From: a virus
Taxonomy: Duplodnaviria; Heunggongvirae; Uroviricota; Caudoviricetes
Direction: 5' to 3' (one strand)
Length of the DNA: 29,693 bases
IMG/VR virus record: IMGVR_UViG_2778261251_000001
The notes below the pieces were generated by a model. It was not told where the DNA came from. It did not search any database and saw only the letters and a list, made by a program, of their open reading frames with translations. Below are positions 1,371 through 5,474 of the stretch, piece by piece. Both the position numbers and the translations under genes were made by a program. The stretch's first letter is position 1, and each line of letters starts with the position of its first letter.

Positions 1371-1952
1371 ATGAACAACTCATGGTGGCAGGAACTAATG
1401 CATTTTTTCCTGCAAGGAATGACACTTAAACAGTTGATTCATATGCTAATCATCCTGATCATATTGATTATTGTTATGCCGGTAAGCGTAAAAGAATGGA
1501 TAAACCTGCATAATCCAGAAATCCTTCCTCATTACTGGATGTATTACATCCTGTTGTTTTGCGTTAGCTATGTGCTTAACGGCGTTGTTAATTCCGCTTA
1601 TCACGCTGTGACTGAAAGAATTGAGGTATTCGCTGCTCAGAAGCGCAAATCTAAAGAAGAGAAATACGTGCAAGATTTGTTTGATTCGTTAACTCTTGGA
1701 GAAAGAGCGTATTTGGCACTCGCTGTAGTCGCTAATAACCAGCTACAAACGGAAAAGGGAAGCCCTGAAGCAATCTCATTGCTCGAAAAAGGGCTTCTTA
1801 TTCGGATACCTTCTGCTACTGGATATCCTGAAATCGACCGTTTTGTTATCCCAGAACGCTATAGAAATGAGTGCTACATTAGGTTTGCTGGGAAGAAAGA
1901 CAGTCTTATGGATGAACTTATCGCTCAGGATAAGCACGGCAAAAACAAGTAA
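1371..1952 (+). CDS. sieB: superinfection exclusion protein SieB-like, membrane protein, 193 aa
   Basis: 193-aa ORF with N-terminal hydrophobic segment (LIHMLIILIILIIVMPV); recalled similarity to lambda/P22 SieB; sits between ral and N, convergent with N. Confidence 0.7.
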   Translation: MNNSWWQELMHFFLQGMTLKQLIHMLIILIILIIVMPVSVKEWINLHNPEILPHYWMYYILLFCVSYVLNGVVNSAYHAVTERIEVFAAQKRKSKEEKYVQDLFDSLTLGERAYLALAVVANNQLQTEKGSPEAISLLEKGLLIRIPSATGYPEIDRFVIPERYRNECYIRFAGKKDSLMDELIAQDKHGKNK

Positions 1953-1968
1953 TTAGCAAATTAATTTA

Positions 1969-2241
1969 TCATCTCGCCGTCAGTTGTTTTGATTTCCGGT
2001 AGCCTGCCGCGTAAATAGCTACGTTTGGCAGGCAAATACTTCCACTGCATTCATCTGCCTTCTTGCAGCGAAGGCTTCCGAGTGATGCTGCTTTATCTGC
2101 TCTGACGCAACCAGAGAGCTTTAGCGCAATTTTTCGCGCCAGTCGCTGTTCTTGCATTGCCTGTTCACGTTGAGCCTGTCTGCGTGCTCTGCGGCGATTT
2201 CTGGCGTTATCGTCAGCCAGATATGTAATGACTACTGTCAT
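1969..2241 (-). CDS. N: antitermination protein N-like
   Basis: 90-aa ORF with arginine-rich motif (NARNRRRARRQAQREQ) near the N-terminus and a C-terminal VAIYAAGYRKSKQLTAR resembling P22 gp24; directly downstream of a boxA/boxB nut site on the same strand. Confidence 0.8.
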   Translation of the reverse strand: MTVVITYLADDNARNRRRARRQAQREQAMQEQRLARKIALKLSGCVRADKAASLGSLRCKKADECSGSICLPNVAIYAAGYRKSKQLTAR

Positions 2242-2348
2242 GTTGACCTCCGATGATTGACTTTGGCGGTGACGCGCCGGGTGCTTATCTTCCGGTTGCC
2301 GTCGTGCAGCTGCACTTCACATCACCCCAAAGCCAACTACTCTTTGGT

Positions 2349-2389
2349 TCCCGCATTTCGGCGGGACAATCCCATCAATGTTAAAGAGC
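2349..2389 (-). promoter_or_regulatory. nutL (boxA GCTCTTTAACA plus boxB hairpin CCCGC-CGAAAT-GCGGG)
   Basis: Read on minus strand: boxA-like GCTCTTTAACA (plus 2379-2389) followed by an inverted repeat (plus 2349-2366); the same boxB sequence recurs downstream of cro on the plus strand. Confidence 0.6.
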
Positions 2390-2436
2390 CTGCCAATCTG
2401 TTCCGTTTGGCTACCAGCGTCCTGCTGATGGCTAAA

Positions 2437-2522
2437 GAATACTGTAGGTATTTTATTGTGTAAATACCCAGGGTATTTATTTTTGATGAAATAATGATAA
2501 ACAGATGAATACAAAGGATATT
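2437..2522. promoter_or_regulatory. OL operator cluster / pL region: three AATAC-N5-GTATT-type sites
   Basis: Sites at 2438-2452 (AATACTGTAGGTATT), 2462-2478 (perfect 17-bp palindrome AAATACCCAGGGTATTT) and 2508-2522 (AATACAAAGGATATT, degenerate); located between the cI operon and N as expected for OL/pL. The pL -35/-10 hexamers were not assigned. Confidence 0.55.
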
Positions 2523-2608
2523 TATTTTTTCGGTATCTGCTTGTTCAGTGCTTTTTATGCGGGATATGTGAAGTGGATCCCGATAGCTATTGCTGCCGGG
2601 ATTATGGG

Positions 2609-2977
2609 TTAGTCAGCGAAGGTTAAGACGAGAATTACCTTAATGATGTCTGCTACAACAGACACGGCCACAGATAAACCAAAGACGATCCAAGCCATAG
2701 AGATGTCTTCACTACCATCGTATAGAGTTCCGTAATCACTGGTGTAAGGCGTAAATGTCGCGCCTTGATACAACAGGTATAAGCTTGATCCATAGAGGAT
2801 AAATGCAGATATCCCTTGTATTGCTATGACCACTAGAATCATGAAACGAGCTGATCTATGCGCCCAAGCCTGGCTTATTTTTTCTGATAGAGATTTCGCA
2901 ATAAAAGCATGCGCTAAGCCGTAAATTGTTGAGATTGCCAACATCCCAAAAAAGCTTGCTATAGCGGTTCCAACCAT
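2609..2977 (-). CDS. small integral membrane protein (3 predicted TM segments) co-transcribed downstream of cI; function unknown
   Basis: 122-aa ORF starting 19 nt after the cI stop with an AGGGGGA Shine-Dalgarno; three long hydrophobic stretches; occupies the rexA/rexB position of lambda. Confidence 0.6.
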   Translation of the reverse strand: MVGTAIASFFGMLAISTIYGLAHAFIAKSLSEKISQAWAHRSARFMILVVIAIQGISAFILYGSSLYLLYQGATFTPYTSDYGTLYDGSEDISMAWIVFGLSVAVSVVADIIKVILVLTFAD

Positions 2978-2996
2978 AAGCGTCCCCCTTGCGTGA

Positions 2997-3713
2997 TCAA
3001 ACCAGCCTTAGTTTTGTCTCAATTGCAACGCCTATAATCTTGCAGTTTCCATTGATTGGCACGAGAGGCCATGCAGGGTTAAGTCCCTTGAGGTATTTAT
3101 TTCCGCCGTCGATTATCAGCTTCTTGAATGTTGCTTCGTTAGAGTCAGAAAGTTTTGCTATGACCAAGCTGCCGTTGATCGCCTCCCTTCCGGTATCGAA
3201 AAGAACGAATGTTCCCTCTGGAATGCTTAACCCAACCGGTGCCGTCATTGAATCACCTTCCACTTTAAGCCAGAACGCATTACCTTGAATATGCGCGTCA
3301 GACTCAAGCCAAACATCTATGTCTTTAATGGTGTATGGTTCGCATGCTTCACACCACGAGCCAGCCTGGATACTGCTTAACACCGGATACCTCTTTCCTG
3401 CTCTGTATTCCCCTGCATACCTTACGTTGGCATCGCTCTTAAGGCTTTCTGCCTGTTCTGCAACCTTGGCAGCAATTGACTGGCTAAAATCAGCAATTGA
3501 GACTTGCAACAAACGTGCAAAACCAGATGCGACCTCAACGTTTAGCGCGTTTCTGCCATTAAGATAATGCCCTACCGCTCCTTGGGTGATACCCAGTTCA
3601 TCAGCGATTGAGTATTGGGTTATTCCCAATTCTTTCTTTTTTGACTCATACAAAGCCTTAAGCCGCTTAGCGTCTTCGAGCTGTTCTGTCGTCAGTGATT
3701 TTTTATTTTCCAT
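2997..3713 (-). CDS. cI: CI-type prophage repressor (HTH N-domain plus LexA/S24-like autocleavage C-domain)
   Basis: 238 aa; N-terminus KKSLTTEQLEDAKRLKALYESKKKELGITQ resembles lambda CI; an Ala-Gly in SIQAGSW, a GDSM serine motif and FKKL lysine motif fit the S24 self-cleaving fold; no Shine-Dalgarno upstream, so a leaderless pRM-type transcript is plausible. Confidence 0.9.
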   Translation of the reverse strand: MENKKSLTTEQLEDAKRLKALYESKKKELGITQYSIADELGITQGAVGHYLNGRNALNVEVASGFARLLQVSIADFSQSIAAKVAEQAESLKSDANVRYAGEYRAGKRYPVLSSIQAGSWCEACEPYTIKDIDVWLESDAHIQGNAFWLKVEGDSMTAPVGLSIPEGTFVLFDTGREAINGSLVIAKLSDSNEATFKKLIIDGGNKYLKGLNPAWPLVPINGNCKIIGVAIETKLRLV

Positions 3714-3747
3714 AGCTTAATTCTAATAGCTAAGGTACTTAAACTAA

Positions 3748-3790
3748 AAATACCCTGAGTATTGATTGCTTTGAATACCTGTAGTATTCT
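3748..3790. promoter_or_regulatory. OR operators with pR/pRM: two AATAC-N5-GTATT sites and a candidate pR (-35 TTGATT, -10 TATTCT)
   Basis: AATACCCTGAGTATT at 3749-3763 and AATACCTGTAGTATT at 3774-3788 in the divergent cI/cro intergenic region; candidate -35 at 3762-3767 and -10 at 3785-3790 with a 17-nt spacer. Confidence 0.55.
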
Positions 3791-3819
3791 TTGTTCATGG
3801 TTAATAACGGAGAGTGCAT

Positions 3820-4014
3820 ATGATTCGAATGACACTTGCCGATTACGCCAAAATCCATGGACAGGCTAAAGCAGCCAGTGACTTTGGTGTAATCCAGTGC
3901 GCTATCAGCAAGGCCATTCTGGCAGGCCGTAACATTATGGTTACGGTAAAGCCTGATGGCAGTGTGATTGGAGAGGAAGTTCGTCCTTTCCCAAGCAACA
4001 AGAAAAACAAATAG
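3820..4014 (+). CDS. cro: Cro repressor
   Basis: [39 protein letters not shown]...FPSNKK aligns by eye along its whole length with lambda Cro; GGAG 7 nt upstream of ATG 3820 (the track's 3814 start is a GTG). Confidence 0.85.
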
Positions 4015-4020
4015 TAACAC

Positions 4021-4065
4021 CGCTCTTTAACAGTCATGGTCCTCATTCCCGCCGAAATGCGGGAA
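4021..4065 (+). promoter_or_regulatory. nutR (boxA CGCTCTTTAACA plus boxB hairpin TTCCCGC-CGAAAT-GCGGGAA)
   Basis: boxA at 4021-4032 immediately after the cro stop; 7-bp-stem hairpin at 4046-4065 identical in core to the nutL boxB. Confidence 0.65.
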
Positions 4066-4122
4066 TACAACGCGCATAAGTTGATGCGCATAACTTCTTA
4101 TTAGTTAAGGAAATACTTACAT

Positions 4123-4401
4123 ATGCAACTTACAAGTACTCGCAAGAAAGCGAATGCAATTACAAGCAACATCCTGAATCGAATTGCTGTACGTGGTCAG
4201 CGAAAGGTTGCCGACGCGTTAGGGATTAATGAATCGCAAATTTCGCGATGGAAAGACAGCTTCATCCCCAAAATGGGAATGCTTCTTGCTGTTCTTGAAT
4301 GGGGTGTTGAAGACGAGGAGTTGGCGGAACTGGCTAAGAAAGTAGCCAGAATGCTGACAAAAGAAAAAGCCCCGAAGAACGGCGAATTCTTCGAGGCCTG
4401 A
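4123..4401 (+). CDS. cII: CII transcriptional activator
   Basis: ...ESQISRWKDSFIPKMGMLLAVLEWGV... matches the lambda CII helix-turn-helix and tetramerisation region; AAGGA Shine-Dalgarno upstream. Confidence 0.85.
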   Translation: MQLTSTRKKANAITSNILNRIAVRGQRKVADALGINESQISRWKDSFIPKMGMLLAVLEWGVEDEELAELAKKVARMLTKEKAPKNGEFFEA

Positions 4402-4435
4402 TGTAGAAAGACTGGATCAATCCACAGGAGTAATT

Positions 4436-4597
4436 ATGACAAAACGTCGTAAGAAATACCAGGAAAAAGAAGAGATTCGACACCCTGATTCACCTGAGGG
4501 ATTAGTGGTAGCCGCAGCAAATAACAGGGCGTTCGCAGAGCGCCTTGTTGGTGTTTACAGACTAGCCAAAGCAGGAGTGAAGCATGGGCGTCGTTAA
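4436..4597 (+). CDS. small basic ORF (53 aa) between cII and the replication initiator
   Basis: Hand-translated MTKRRKKYQEKEEIRHPDSPEGLVVAAANNRAFAERLVGVYRLAKAGVKHGRR*; AGGAG 5 nt upstream; end overlaps the start of the O-like gene. Confidence 0.4.
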   Translation: MTKRRKKYQEKEEIRHPDSPEGLVVAAANNRAFAERLVGVYRLAKAGVKHGRR

Positions 4598-5474
4598 GTT
4601 AGCTGATTACAGGCATAACCCTGTACAACATCAGGAGGCATCCAGTATGGGGTATGTCTCTATACACCGCCAGTTTATGGACAGCAGGCTCTATAAGGAC
4701 TCTCAGGCAGTACATCTTTGGCTTCACTTAATCCTCAAGGCTAATCACGAATCTACTGTCGTCAATACGGATATCGGGCCGATAACTGTTGATCGCGGTC
4801 AGATGATAACTGGACGCCCGTCGCTGGTCAGAGAAACATTCATCCCCGACAACAAAGTTCGGAGCTTATTACGGACTTTTGAGTCGAAAGGGATGCTTAA
4901 TATTTGCTCGATGGGGAAGAAATTTAGCCTGTTTACAATCGTTAAATATGACGATTTTCAGGCAAAAAATTGTCCAACGGTTGTCCAACGGTTGTCCAAC
5001 GCAAACACCAGTAATGGCGCGGCTCTCAGCGGAGATTGTCCAACGGTTGTCCAACGGTTGTCCATAAACAATAATATAAATAATATCTCTAATACTGACG
5101 TATTAGAGAGTGCCACAGCAGACAAAAAGTCTGACAAGAAAAAACCTTCCGTCAGCTGTCAGGATGTTGTCGATGCTTACCACGAAATCCTTCCTGAAGC
5201 GCCAAGAATCCGCGCACTGAATGACAAGCGTAAAAACCAGATCCGAACGTTCTGGCGCAAAGCCGGAGTAATAACACGCCAACTTGACGGGCATGGGTTC
5301 ACGATGCAGGACTGGAGAAATTATTTGAGCTACGTTGGCGAAAATTGCCGATGGATGTTCGAAGAGCGCCCAAACCATCAACGCGGAACCGTCTGGCACA
5401 AAAAGGGATTTGATTTCCTGCTTAACGATAATACCTACCTGAAAGTTCGTGAGGGTGAACACGATGACCGATAA
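4584..5474 (+). CDS. O: replication initiator protein O-like (origin-binding)
   Basis: 296-aa ORF with AGGAG upstream; the ori iterons lie inside its linker region, as in the lambda O gene; followed by a helicase gene. Confidence 0.75.
   Translation: MGVVKLADYRHNPVQHQEASSMGYVSIHRQFMDSRLYKDSQAVHLWLHLILKANHESTVVNTDIGPITVDRGQMITGRPSLVRETFIPDNKVRSLLRTFESKGMLNICSMGKKFSLFTIVKYDDFQAKNCPTVVQRLSNANTSNGAALSGDCPTVVQRLSINNNINNISNTDVLESATADKKSDKKKPSVSCQDVVDAYHEILPEAPRIRALNDKRKNQIRTFWRKAGVITRQLDGHGFTMQDWRNYLSYVGENCRWMFEERPNHQRGTVWHKKGFDFLLNDNTYLKVREGEHDDR
4970..5105. repeat. origin of replication: six direct iterons of TTGTCCAACGG followed by an AT-rich tract
   Basis: Copies at 4970-4980, 4981-4991, 4992-5002 (last base C), 5036-5046, 5047-5057 and a partial copy at 5058-5066, then an AT-rich tract to about 5105; encodes the repeated CPTVVQRLS peptide in O. 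Confidence 0.75.

Follow-up and report, generated by a model that had tools for sequence, protein, structure and literature searches.

The early region of the phage DNA studied here very probably carries the N-dependent antitermination module of an HK620-type lambdoid phage or prophage, in which the arginine-rich motif of N and the boxB hairpin would constitute one exchangeable specificity cassette. The region lies in a stretch of 29,693 nucleotides from a virus of the Caudoviricetes (IMG/VR record IMGVR_UViG_2778261251_000001), hereafter the window. Judged by sequence comparison, a motif-boxB specificity class separate from those of lambda, P22/933W, and phage 21 appears well supported. In the mechanism we propose, the pL and pR transcripts would bear nutL and nutR, the consensus boxA GCUCUUUAACA in each nut site would recruit host NusB-S10, and N would bind the boxB hairpin, with its G+C stem and CGAAAU loop, through an N-terminal arginine-rich helix (core DNARNRRRARR). 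NusA would be contacted by the phage 21-type middle of N and RNA polymerase by its P22/933W-type C-terminus. The modified polymerase would then read through terminators past both nut sites, rightward into cII-O-P and leftward into cIII, the recombination genes, and the genes distal to sieB. RNA polymerase binding has a precedent in H-19B N, whose C-terminal domain binds the enzyme (PMC3526286) and shows 95% identity to amino acids 69-90 of the window N.

By its sequence the region is best described as the HK620 immunity region, and the module appears to be already known, common, and ordinary. The window shows approximately 98% DNA identity with HK620 (GenBank AF335538 / NC_002730) over positions 1973-4445 (98.1% over 97% of window 1900-4450), N is 97.8% identical to the N proteins of HK620 and HK140, and window 4021-4066 matches the HK620 nutR feature at 100% identity. 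Both have pL, operators, cI, cro, nutR, pRE, and cII in the same order, and the few point differences fall outside boxA and boxB. To the left of N, the window carries sieB, as do HK140 and P22, whereas HK620 carries hkaQ and hkaP. The GenBank record of HK620 already has features for N and for 'putative' nutL and nutR sites at the corresponding positions, and the same module is also found in HK140, HK630, mEpX2, CUS-3, IME10, and others. The N/nutL block forms a single conserved stretch of DNA with 95-100% identity across most relatives and occurs in 412-526 of 5,426 complete E. coli genomes (~8-10%). Thus, the idea that this boxB is unusual or new is not supported. In hundreds of E. coli genomes RefSeq labels this N a 'hypothetical protein', so a combined motif and boxB signature could improve annotation.

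The region has a canonical layout, in the order sieB, N, nutL, pL, hkaS-like, cI, cro, nutR, and cII. N (1969..2241, minus strand) encodes 90 amino acids, matches Pfam N_peptide PF25694 over amino acids 11-90 (E = 1.1e-15; 58.4 bits against a cut-off of 27.9), and matches PHROG 271, 'anti-termination protein N-like' (E = 4e-34). It is the first gene of the pL operon, which runs from pL (2464-2436, minus strand) through nutL (2391-2349) to the N start at 2241. The pL promoter (2436..2464, minus strand; TTTACA-17-TATTCT), the source of the nutL/N transcript, was called by a promoter scan and matches the HK620 pL feature after coordinate transfer. On the other side, cro (3820..4014, plus strand; Pfam Cro, E = 4e-26) is the first gene of the nutR-bearing pR transcript, and cII (4123..4401, plus strand; Pfam Phage_CII, E = 2e-42) comes first after nutR and the presumed tR1 zone. 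The cII ribosome-binding site, TAAGGAAATACTTACATATG, is the same as in lambda, and expression of the gene should be N-dependent.

The N protein itself is a mosaic of a distinct motif, a phage 21 middle, and a P22/933W C-terminus. The arginine-rich motif occupies amino acids ~9-28 (ADDNARNRRRARRQAQREQA) and contains the distinct sequence DDNARNRRRARR with the core DNARNRRRARR. Alignment of NARNRRRARR with AQTRRRERR of lambda, NAKTRRHERR of P22, and TAKSRYKARR of phage 21 bears out the expectation that this N has an arginine-rich motif of its own. The middle (amino acids 33-63) is of the phage 21 type, with 98% DNA identity to phage 21 N and, by tblastn, 96% amino acid identity over residues 37-64. 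Residues ~66-90 (CLPNVAIYAAGYRKSKQLTAR) are of the P22/933W type. The P22-like C-terminus that had been proposed is therefore correct insofar as residues 47-90 show 57% identity to P22 gp24 by tblastn, although this description is incomplete, as the middle belongs with phage 21 and the C-terminus is nearly that of the 933W/H-19B N (95% identity to 933W N at residues 69-90, tblastn). A PDB sequence search with N returned chance matches to RNF168 only, and the known N peptides themselves did not come up.

Both nut sites combine an exact boxA with the same hairpin. The 16-mer CCCGCCGAAATGCGGG occurs exactly twice in a search of the whole window, at 2350-2365 (minus strand) and 4048-4063 (plus strand), one copy lying upstream of N (nutL) and the other after cro (nutR). 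Shuffling gives an expectation of 0.01 matches even when two mismatches are tolerated, and none of 100 shuffled sequences held two copies, so the identical core claimed for the two sites is confirmed. The boxA sequence GCTCTTTAAC lies at 2380-2389 (minus strand) and 4022-4031 (plus strand) and agrees exactly with the consensus GCUCUUUAAC at both sites, where a near-consensus element had been predicted. As annotated, the nutL boxA (2380..2391, minus strand) reads GGCUCUUUAACA on the pL transcript and falls inside the counterpart of the HK620 'nutL' feature, and the nutR boxA (4021..4032, plus strand; CGCUCUUUAACA) begins 7 nt past the cro stop codon. In full, nutL reads GGCTCTTTAACA and nutR reads CGCTCTTTAACA, with spacers from the end of boxA to the boxB stem of 18 nt in nutL and 16 nt in nutR.

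At nutL (2349..2366, minus strand) the boxB RNA is predicted to fold as UCCCGC-CGAAAU-GCGGGA, with six pairs (-10.5 kcal/mol; z = -3.1), and at nutR (4045..4066, plus strand) as AUUCCCGC-CGAAAU-GCGGGAAU, with eight pairs (-12.5 kcal/mol; z = -3.9). Thus, the predicted 6-nt loop is found in both folds and each stem is G+C, while the proposed stem of 6 to 7 bp fits nutL and falls short of the eight pairs at nutR. These observations support reading the two hairpins as the putative boxB elements of nutL and nutR. Beyond boxB on the leftward transcript lies a further hairpin (2311..2346, minus strand), CCAAAG-AGUAGUUGG-CUUUGG followed by GGGUGAUGUGA, identified by comparison and folding. This stretch, which we take to be the boxC region, is common to the nutL regions of lambda, 933W, P22, phage 21, and a Yersinia phage.

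Comparison with the characterized systems, whose reference loops were taken from public sequence records for lambda, P22, and phage 21, indicates that the window has neither the loop nor the motif of the lambda (GAAAA/GAAGA), P22/933W (GACAA), or phage 21 (CUAACC) class. The stated difference from the lambda and P22 loops is thereby upheld. Similarities to lambda include the arginine pattern, in which TRRRERR aligns with NRRRARR, a purine-rich loop with a GAAA core, the order of boxA, spacer, and boxB, the nutL-distal CAAAG..CUUUGGGGUGUGUGA stretch, and the cII ribosome-binding site. However, the lambda loop has 5 nt with one extruded base and a U-A closing pair, the lambda boxA is shorter (CGCUCUUA), Trp18 of lambda N corresponds to Ala28/Met29 here, and sequence homology to lambda N is not detectable beyond the motif. 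P22 gp24 and the H-19B/933W proteins have in common with the window N the N-terminus MTV(V)ITY and the C-terminus LPxVAxYAAGxRKSKQxTAR, but their boxB is GCGCU-GACAA-AGCGC and their motifs (GNAKTRRHERRRKLAIER in P22 and GNSRSRRRERLKAK in 933W) both differ.

Phage 21 is the closest of the three in the design of its loop. Its boxB hexaloop CUAACC adopts a GNRA-like UMAC fold with a flanking C-C pair by NMR (PDB 1NYB, as described in PMC12550061), so a 6-nt boxB loop is not unprecedented. Both systems have a 6-nt loop that begins with C, ends with a pyrimidine, and encloses a GNRA-type tetranucleotide, and in both the arginine-rich motif lacks tryptophan. The consensus boxA stands in the same flank, its context at nutL being identical in phage 21 and the window, and the nutL leader is homologous. 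They differ in loop sequence (CUAACC vs CGAAAU), in stem (UCUCAAC/GUUGAGA or CACCU/GGGUG vs CCCGC/GCGGG), in motif (GTAKSRYKARRAEL vs DNARNRRRARRQAQ), and in the C-terminus of N, which is lambda/phage 21-type (..GSKPLI) in phage 21 and P22/933W-type here. By analogy with the C-[UAAC]-C architecture of phage 21 boxB, the GAAA of the CGAAAU loop most likely forms a true GNRA tetraloop that rests on a pyrimidine-pyrimidine layer made by C.U. We give roughly even chances to the broader proposal that this is a fourth, structurally distinct and orthogonal mode of N-peptide/boxB recognition, with GNRA on a C.U platform read by an arginine-rich helix without an aromatic stacking residue, and, separately, that the hairpin after nutR is a functional RNA element, with no described role, that is conserved in the early-right leaders of lambdoid phages.

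The association of motif and boxB was followed among relatives in both directions. IMG/VR loci were chosen by the boxB 16-mer alone, and copies with boxA and at least 700 nt of downstream sequence were sorted: 90 have an ORF with the HK620-type motif within 1.6 kb, 87 have a cII-like ORF and represent nutR, and 5 were left unclassified. By downstream sequence two of these five are nutL-type, one of them carrying the motif variant DDNTRNRRRARR, and three are nutR. Conversely, loci with the HK620-type motif and enough sequence also have a CGAAAU-loop boxB at nutR, with four exceptions. We do not accept these as counter-examples: one is an interrupted site, in two nutR lies beyond the available sequence, and the last is mEp213, which has lambda nut sites and a second N. 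The same motif stands at the head of 83 distinct N proteins with C-termini of either the P22/933W or the lambda/phage 21 type, and occurs in Escherichia, Pantoea, Erwinia, Tatumella, and Cedecea. The pairing is seen with both C-terminal types and across at least 14 different immunity cassettes.

A set of natural swaps points in the same direction. Among 80 loci selected solely by the C-terminal 58 amino acids of N, all 74 with the HK620 motif have HK620-type boxB only, at whichever nut sites their sequence included, and all 6 with the phage 21 motif are paired only with phage 21 boxB. In these six, nutL carries UCUCAAC-CUAACC-GUUGAGA, and CACCU-CUAACC-GGGUG is present in both loci whose sequence reached nutR. 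The phage 21 boxB sits between the same flanks, and the C-terminal half of N is that of the HK620-motif loci. Window and phage 21 DNA are 91% identical in the boxA flank, 38% in boxB, 72% in the leader, 44% in the motif codons, and 98% in the N middle. In phage 21 the recombination joints precisely bracket boxB and the motif codons, and the DNA that separates these two is homologous. Since the relatives are closely related, these large counts represent fewer independent events. The distinct N-boxB specificity pair of the original prediction therefore stands as far as co-inheritance and comparison with lambda, P22, and phage 21 are concerned, but not as an experimental result; a literature search found no binding or antitermination experiment on HK620-type N or boxB.

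It is conceivable, though we consider it quite improbable, that motif and boxB merely hitch-hike together, nutL being ~110 nt from N and co-inherited without a functional match, and that N is loose in its choice of boxB or active on other types. Consistent with this, nutL adjoins the motif codons (both lie within window 2144-2366) in a block that is mostly 95-100% identical, and mEp213 has an HK620-type N without an intact cognate nutL, beside lambda N and lambda nutL. However, the same boxB recurs at nutR in 14 unrelated clusters of immunity regions, where nutR lies 1.15-3.0 kb from N, a distance at which simple linkage fails to explain the match. Moreover, N genes with the phage 21 motif and the same C-terminal half have the phage 21 boxB at nutL in all six loci and at nutR in the two whose sequence reached it, and the position of the joints fits selection for matched pairs. 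Even less credible, to the point of being nearly negligible, is the idea that the hairpins follow boxA by chance and serve not as N targets but as terminators, RNase sites, or DNA palindromes bound by a protein. Both are indeed stable and G+C, and an Rfam search in E-value mode over window 1800-4700 gave zero family matches, which leaves them without an independent RNA-family assignment. Yet neither hairpin is followed by a U-run or called by the terminator scan, both lie 16-18 nt after boxA with the position and spacing of the lambda, P22, and phage 21 nut sites, and they swap in step with the arginine-rich motif of N.

Compensatory changes in the stem, which are expected for an RNA, also argue for the boxB reading. 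The hairpin, whose absence from relatives the original prediction had named as counting against it, is conserved: across 20 distinct relatives, 5 of 8 pairs have changed on both sides, in 19 cells of the comparison, with a covariation score that was reached by 0 of 500 shuffles and that is far higher than in slid registers. At the third stem pair, some nutR variants of Erwinia, Pantoea, Tatumella, and Cedecea show a C.C or C.A mismatch, so the stem is not strictly Watson-Crick there. Genome contigs were scanned with the pattern GCTCTTTAAMA-N(8-20)-CCGAAATG, in which the loop and the closing C-G pair are fixed by design, and their invariance is thus no evidence. Because of the information content of the pattern, the scan gave mostly chance matches in unrelated phyla; those used were from Enterobacterales only (Escherichia, Pantoea, Tatumella, Serratia, Rosenbergiella, and Cedecea), together with one prophage-like contig from a MAG labelled Bacillales.

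Characterized N/boxB systems have found wide use in RNA tethering and as models for recognition by arginine-rich motifs. The present module may add to the three such systems a well-defined peptide-RNA pair supported by natural variants, and a fourth recognition mode, if true, would offer a further orthogonal tethering tag beside the lambda, P22, and phage 21 set. The natural cassette swap with phage 21 keeps the flanks and exchanges only boxB and the motif codons; it illustrates cleanly how a protein motif and its RNA target can co-evolve as modules. In practical terms the value is modest, and the concepts of antitermination are unchanged.

Finally, the hairpin GCGCAU-AAGUUG-AUGCGC lies at 4072..4089 (plus strand), between nutR and the cII ribosome-binding site, exactly where it had been placed, and is predicted to fold with -9.0 kcal/mol (z = -2.55). 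We rejected it as an intrinsic terminator, as it lacks a T-run (its tail is AUAACUUCUUAUUAG) and is not called by the terminator scan. Its position makes a role in tR1 plausible, and we rate at somewhat below even the chance that it supplies the structure in a Rho-dependent tR1 region, where transcription would pause or the RNA be released ahead of cII, as in lambda. In lambda, the hairpins ACACC-TAT-GGTGT and ATGCA-TTTATT-TGCAT occupy the same interval, and 'tR1' in the HK620 record corresponds to the 7 nt directly before the hairpin (TACAACG). Against this role, beyond the missing T-run, the flanking RNA is not markedly C-rich and G-poor: the sequence upstream of boxB is mildly C-over-G (10 C, 4 G), and 4064-4122 has 10 C and 9 G. 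In the antisense pRE transcript the palindrome forms as well, and there it could instead stabilize the cI-establishment RNA, take part in its processing, or influence translation of cII. The tR1 reading does gain from conservation, as P22 has the same stem in the same place (GCGCAT-CAACGA-ATGCGC) and other relatives keep non-homologous hairpins there, 4-10 nt past boxB. Many of these replacement hairpins have a CCCCACGG loop and a 3' CACG(C/T)AA motif.

The immunity and early-control region at window 1371-4597 has a textbook lambdoid layout. It comprises sieB (1371-1952, + strand), N (1969-2241, -; 90 aa, Pfam N_peptide E = 1e-15), nutL (2349-2391, -), pL (about 2436-2464, -), a gene resembling hkaS of HK620 (2609-2977, -), cI (2997-3713, -; HTH and S24 peptidase), cro (3820-4014, +), nutR (4021-4066, +), a second hairpin (4072-4089), and cII (4123-4401, +). 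In megablast, coliphage HK620 matches window 1973-4445 at 98.1% identity, and HK140, HK630, and mEpX2 match it at 97-99%. The HK620 GenBank record (AF335538) already marks N, 'nutL; putative', and 'nutR; putative' at homologous positions, along with pL, pR, operators, pRE, and a 7-nt 'tR1' (TACAACG, window 4066-4072), and its nutR feature matches window 4021-4066 at 100% identity. The feature is real and already annotated in the public record, and the original prediction interpreted its kind correctly. The N/nut module is present in 412-526 of 5,426 complete E. coli genomes, and at least 19 phage records contain it over most of its length. In the E. coli RefSeq genomes listed, PGAP labels N of HK620 type a 'hypothetical protein' despite the Pfam N_peptide match. 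A literature search, in which subscription journals were thinly covered, found no characterisation of HK620-type N or boxB. HK620-type N/boxB is a putative specificity class of a well-known system.

The 16-mer CCCGCCGAAATGCGGG occurs exactly twice in the window, at 2350-2365 (-) and 4048-4063 (+), each copy lying 16-18 nt downstream of GCTCTTTAACA, while shuffles gave 0.01 expected matches even allowing two mismatches. The identical boxB core proposed for nutL and nutR is thus confirmed, each copy following boxA. The consensus-type boxA GCUCUUUAACA is the rrn-like form and is shared with P22 and phage 21. RNA folding around the loop CGAAAU gave 6 pairs at nutL (z = -3.1) and 8 pairs at nutR (z = -3.9), so that the proposed stem of 6 to 7 bp suits nutL but not nutR.

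Three comparisons across relatives indicate that N residues about 9-28 and boxB form a co-selected cassette. Scanning IMG/VR for the 16-mer gave at least 120 stretches and, among the matches listed, most hold a divergent 16-mer pair 1.15-3.0 kb apart. When copies with boxA and a downstream stretch of at least 700 nt were counted, 90 boxB copies among the matches listed had an ORF with the HK620 motif (the arginine-rich motif of the window and HK620 type) within 1.6 kb downstream, 87 preceded a cII-like ORF (nutR), and 5 fell in neither class. By downstream sequence, two of these five count as nutL-type, one of them shown with the motif variant DDNTRNRRRARR; the other three are nutR. In the reverse direction, a CGAAAU-loop boxB stands at nutR in loci that have the HK620 motif and extend at least 2.5 kb to the pR side, with four exceptions, namely one site split by foreign DNA, mEp213, and two loci without nutR in the sequence examined. 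The match at nutR is not linkage, because the DNA separating the two boxB copies sorts into 14 clusters unrelated to one another.

A natural swap was found among 80 loci picked solely by the C-terminal 58 aa of N, which carry the HK620 motif in 74 cases and the phage 21 motif in 6. At the nut sites found in the sequence examined, the 74 have HK620-type boxB only. The 6 have phage 21 boxB only, with UCUCAAC-CUAACC-GUUGAGA at nutL in 6/6 and CACCU-CUAACC-GGGUG at nutR in both loci whose sequence included it; boxA context is alike in the two groups. In a Yersinia phage the motif is of a third kind, ENSKTRKFKRTGEFF, and so is the boxB, which sits within the same nutL flanks (nutL CUCCCGG-AUAGU-CUGGGAG; nutR CCCCGG-AAAGU-CUGGGG). 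Of 83 distinct N proteins with the HK620-type motif at their head, at least 34 have C-termini of P22/933W type and at least 29 of lambda/phage 21 type; the motif extends beyond Escherichia to Pantoea, Erwinia, Tatumella, and Cedecea. The distinct specificity pair originally predicted therefore has strong comparative support, from pairing in both directions and from the swap, although comparison does not demonstrate binding itself.

Two of the exceptional loci deserve description. In mEp213 (IMGVR_UViG_2595698474_000001, about 1600-3700), two tandem N genes are present: a lambda-type nutL (GCCCTGAAGAAGGGC) with the lambda N coding sequence is followed by a 5'-truncated HK620-type boxB remnant without boxA and then an intact HK620-type N gene, and this second N is without a cognate nutL. 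In locus L111, the nutR boxB is broken after CCCGCCG by foreign DNA beginning TGAACCGCCCCGGG, which resembles an IS3-family end; this locus is probably a defective prophage.

The arginine-rich motif of the window N, NARNRRRARRQAQ, was aligned with those of lambda (DAQTRRRERRAEK), P22 (NAKTRRHERRRKL), phage 21 (TAKSRYKARRAEL), and 933W (NSRSRRRERLKAK). The family pattern is present and the sequence differs, as had been anticipated; no tryptophan occupies the position of lambda Trp18. By tblastn against phage records and protein alignment, N is a mosaic of three parts. Residues 1-36 are common only to HK620-type N proteins (HK620, HK140, HK630, JEP4, CUS-3, IME10, and others), residues 37-64 share 96% identity with phage 21 N (DE3 / lambda imm21 record), and residues 69-90 share 95% with 933W N. 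The C-terminus was described as P22-like, and residues 47-90 are indeed 57% identical to P22 gp24, but the description is incomplete because of the phage 21 and 933W segments. The joints are sharp in a DNA alignment with phage 21, with identities of 91% in the boxA flank, 38% in boxB, 72% in the leader from boxB to the N start, 44% in N codons 1-32, 98% in codons 33-63, and 31% in the N C-terminus.

The boxB stem was examined in 20 distinct, mutually related sequences with the CGAAAU loop; in the genome scan, the loop and closing C-G pair were set in advance. Changes on both sides occurred at 5/8 stem pairs (19 cells), and the covariation score was reached by 0/500 shuffles, with every slid register scoring far lower. 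Stems include CCCUAC/GUAGGG in Serratia, CCCCUGC/GUGGGG in Rosenbergiella, and UCUCCGC/GCGGGGA in Pantoea. The nutR stem of Erwinia, Tatumella, and Cedecea (GCUCCCAC/GUCGGAGC) changes pair 2 to A-U and has a C.C mismatch at position 3, where Pantoea shows C.A. A 6-nt loop, considered unusual at the outset, has a precedent in phage 21, whose boxB carries the hexaloop CUAACC; there UAAC takes up a GNRA-like (UMAC) fold, and a non-canonical C-C pair flanks it (PDB 1NYB, via PMC12550061). By analogy, the C-GAAA-U loop would most simply be a genuine GNRA tetraloop upon a C.U layer.

In lambda N antitermination, NusB-S10 binds boxA and the arginine-rich motif binds boxB (PMC2724277), while N binds NusA through its central region and RNA polymerase through its C-terminal region (PMC2724277; PMC3526286 for the C-terminal domain of H-19B N, to which the window N C-terminus is nearly identical). 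In the window phage, NusB-S10 would bind boxA of nutL and nutR, the arginine-rich motif would bind boxB, the centre and C-terminus of N would contact NusA and RNA polymerase, respectively, and N-modified transcription would read through terminators.

The hairpin GCGCAT-AAGTTG-ATGCGC lies at 4072-4089 as predicted (-9.0 kcal/mol, z = -2.55). P22 has GCGCAT-CAACGA-ATGCGC after nutR, with the same stem, and lambda has two small hairpins in the matching interval. Close relatives show wobble-compatible changes (e.g., GCGCAT-CAGTTG-GTGCGT), and the hairpins at this distance in more remote nutR regions are unrelated, such as GCAGACC-CCAC-GGTCTGC, GCATACC-CCAC-GGTATGC, TTAGCC-ATAA-GGCTAA, and TCAGCT-ATT-AGCTGA. 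Structure rather than sequence is thus conserved in this element, suggesting that it has a function. An intrinsic terminator was rejected because a T-run is missing. That the hairpin is part of tR1 is possible but somewhat doubtful: its position and the HK620 'tR1' annotation agree with this reading, but the palindrome would form in the leftward pRE transcript too. Unrelated nutR-distal hairpins (L005, L041, L236, L290, L291, and other relatives) repeatedly have a CCCCACGG or CCCACGG loop region, with the 3' motif CACG(C/T)AA in common.

After the nutL boxB come CCAAAG-AGTAGTTGG-CTTTGG and GGGTGATGTGA; this stretch, the boxC region of nutL, is common to lambda (CAAAGCAGAAGGCTTTGGGGTGTGTGA), 933W, P22, phage 21, and the Yersinia phage. 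Some relatives (L028, L132, L144, L288, and others) have ACTGAGTTTAACCAAACAGGAGGTGCCGTAATGGTGCAC after the nutL boxB, and their nutL-to-N start distance is about 300-450 nt, compared with about 110 nt in the window, so that they hold extra sequence inserted before N. This insert may include a short ORF from the ATG in ACTGAGTTTAACCAAACAGGAGGTGCCGTAATGGTGCAC; HK140 has a different small ORF between nutL and N.

Several further elements were observed. The hkaS-like gene, between cI and pL, encodes a 122-aa predicted membrane protein (PHROG 6534, function unassigned in PHROG). The exclusion gene rexB stands at the matching place in lambda, and the hkaS-like gene may be an exclusion or defence gene expressed from the prophage. 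Lambda and the window have the same cII ribosome-binding site, TAAGGAAATACTTACATATG. At 4094-4110 (+), a weak 6-pair hairpin can form between UUCUUA and the cII Shine-Dalgarno UAAGGA, and it recurs in folds of relatives. A strong terminator-like hairpin at 4367-4399 (-), with 14 pairs and a T-run, is antisense to the cII 3' end and matches the oop RNA terminator of lambda and P22 in position and form. Finally, the peptide CPTVVQRLS.. / DNRWT.. is repeated across ORFs in several frames at 4870-5070, pointing to direct DNA repeats within the O replication gene; such repeats fit ori iterons, and the HK620 record has a rep_origin at the homologous place.
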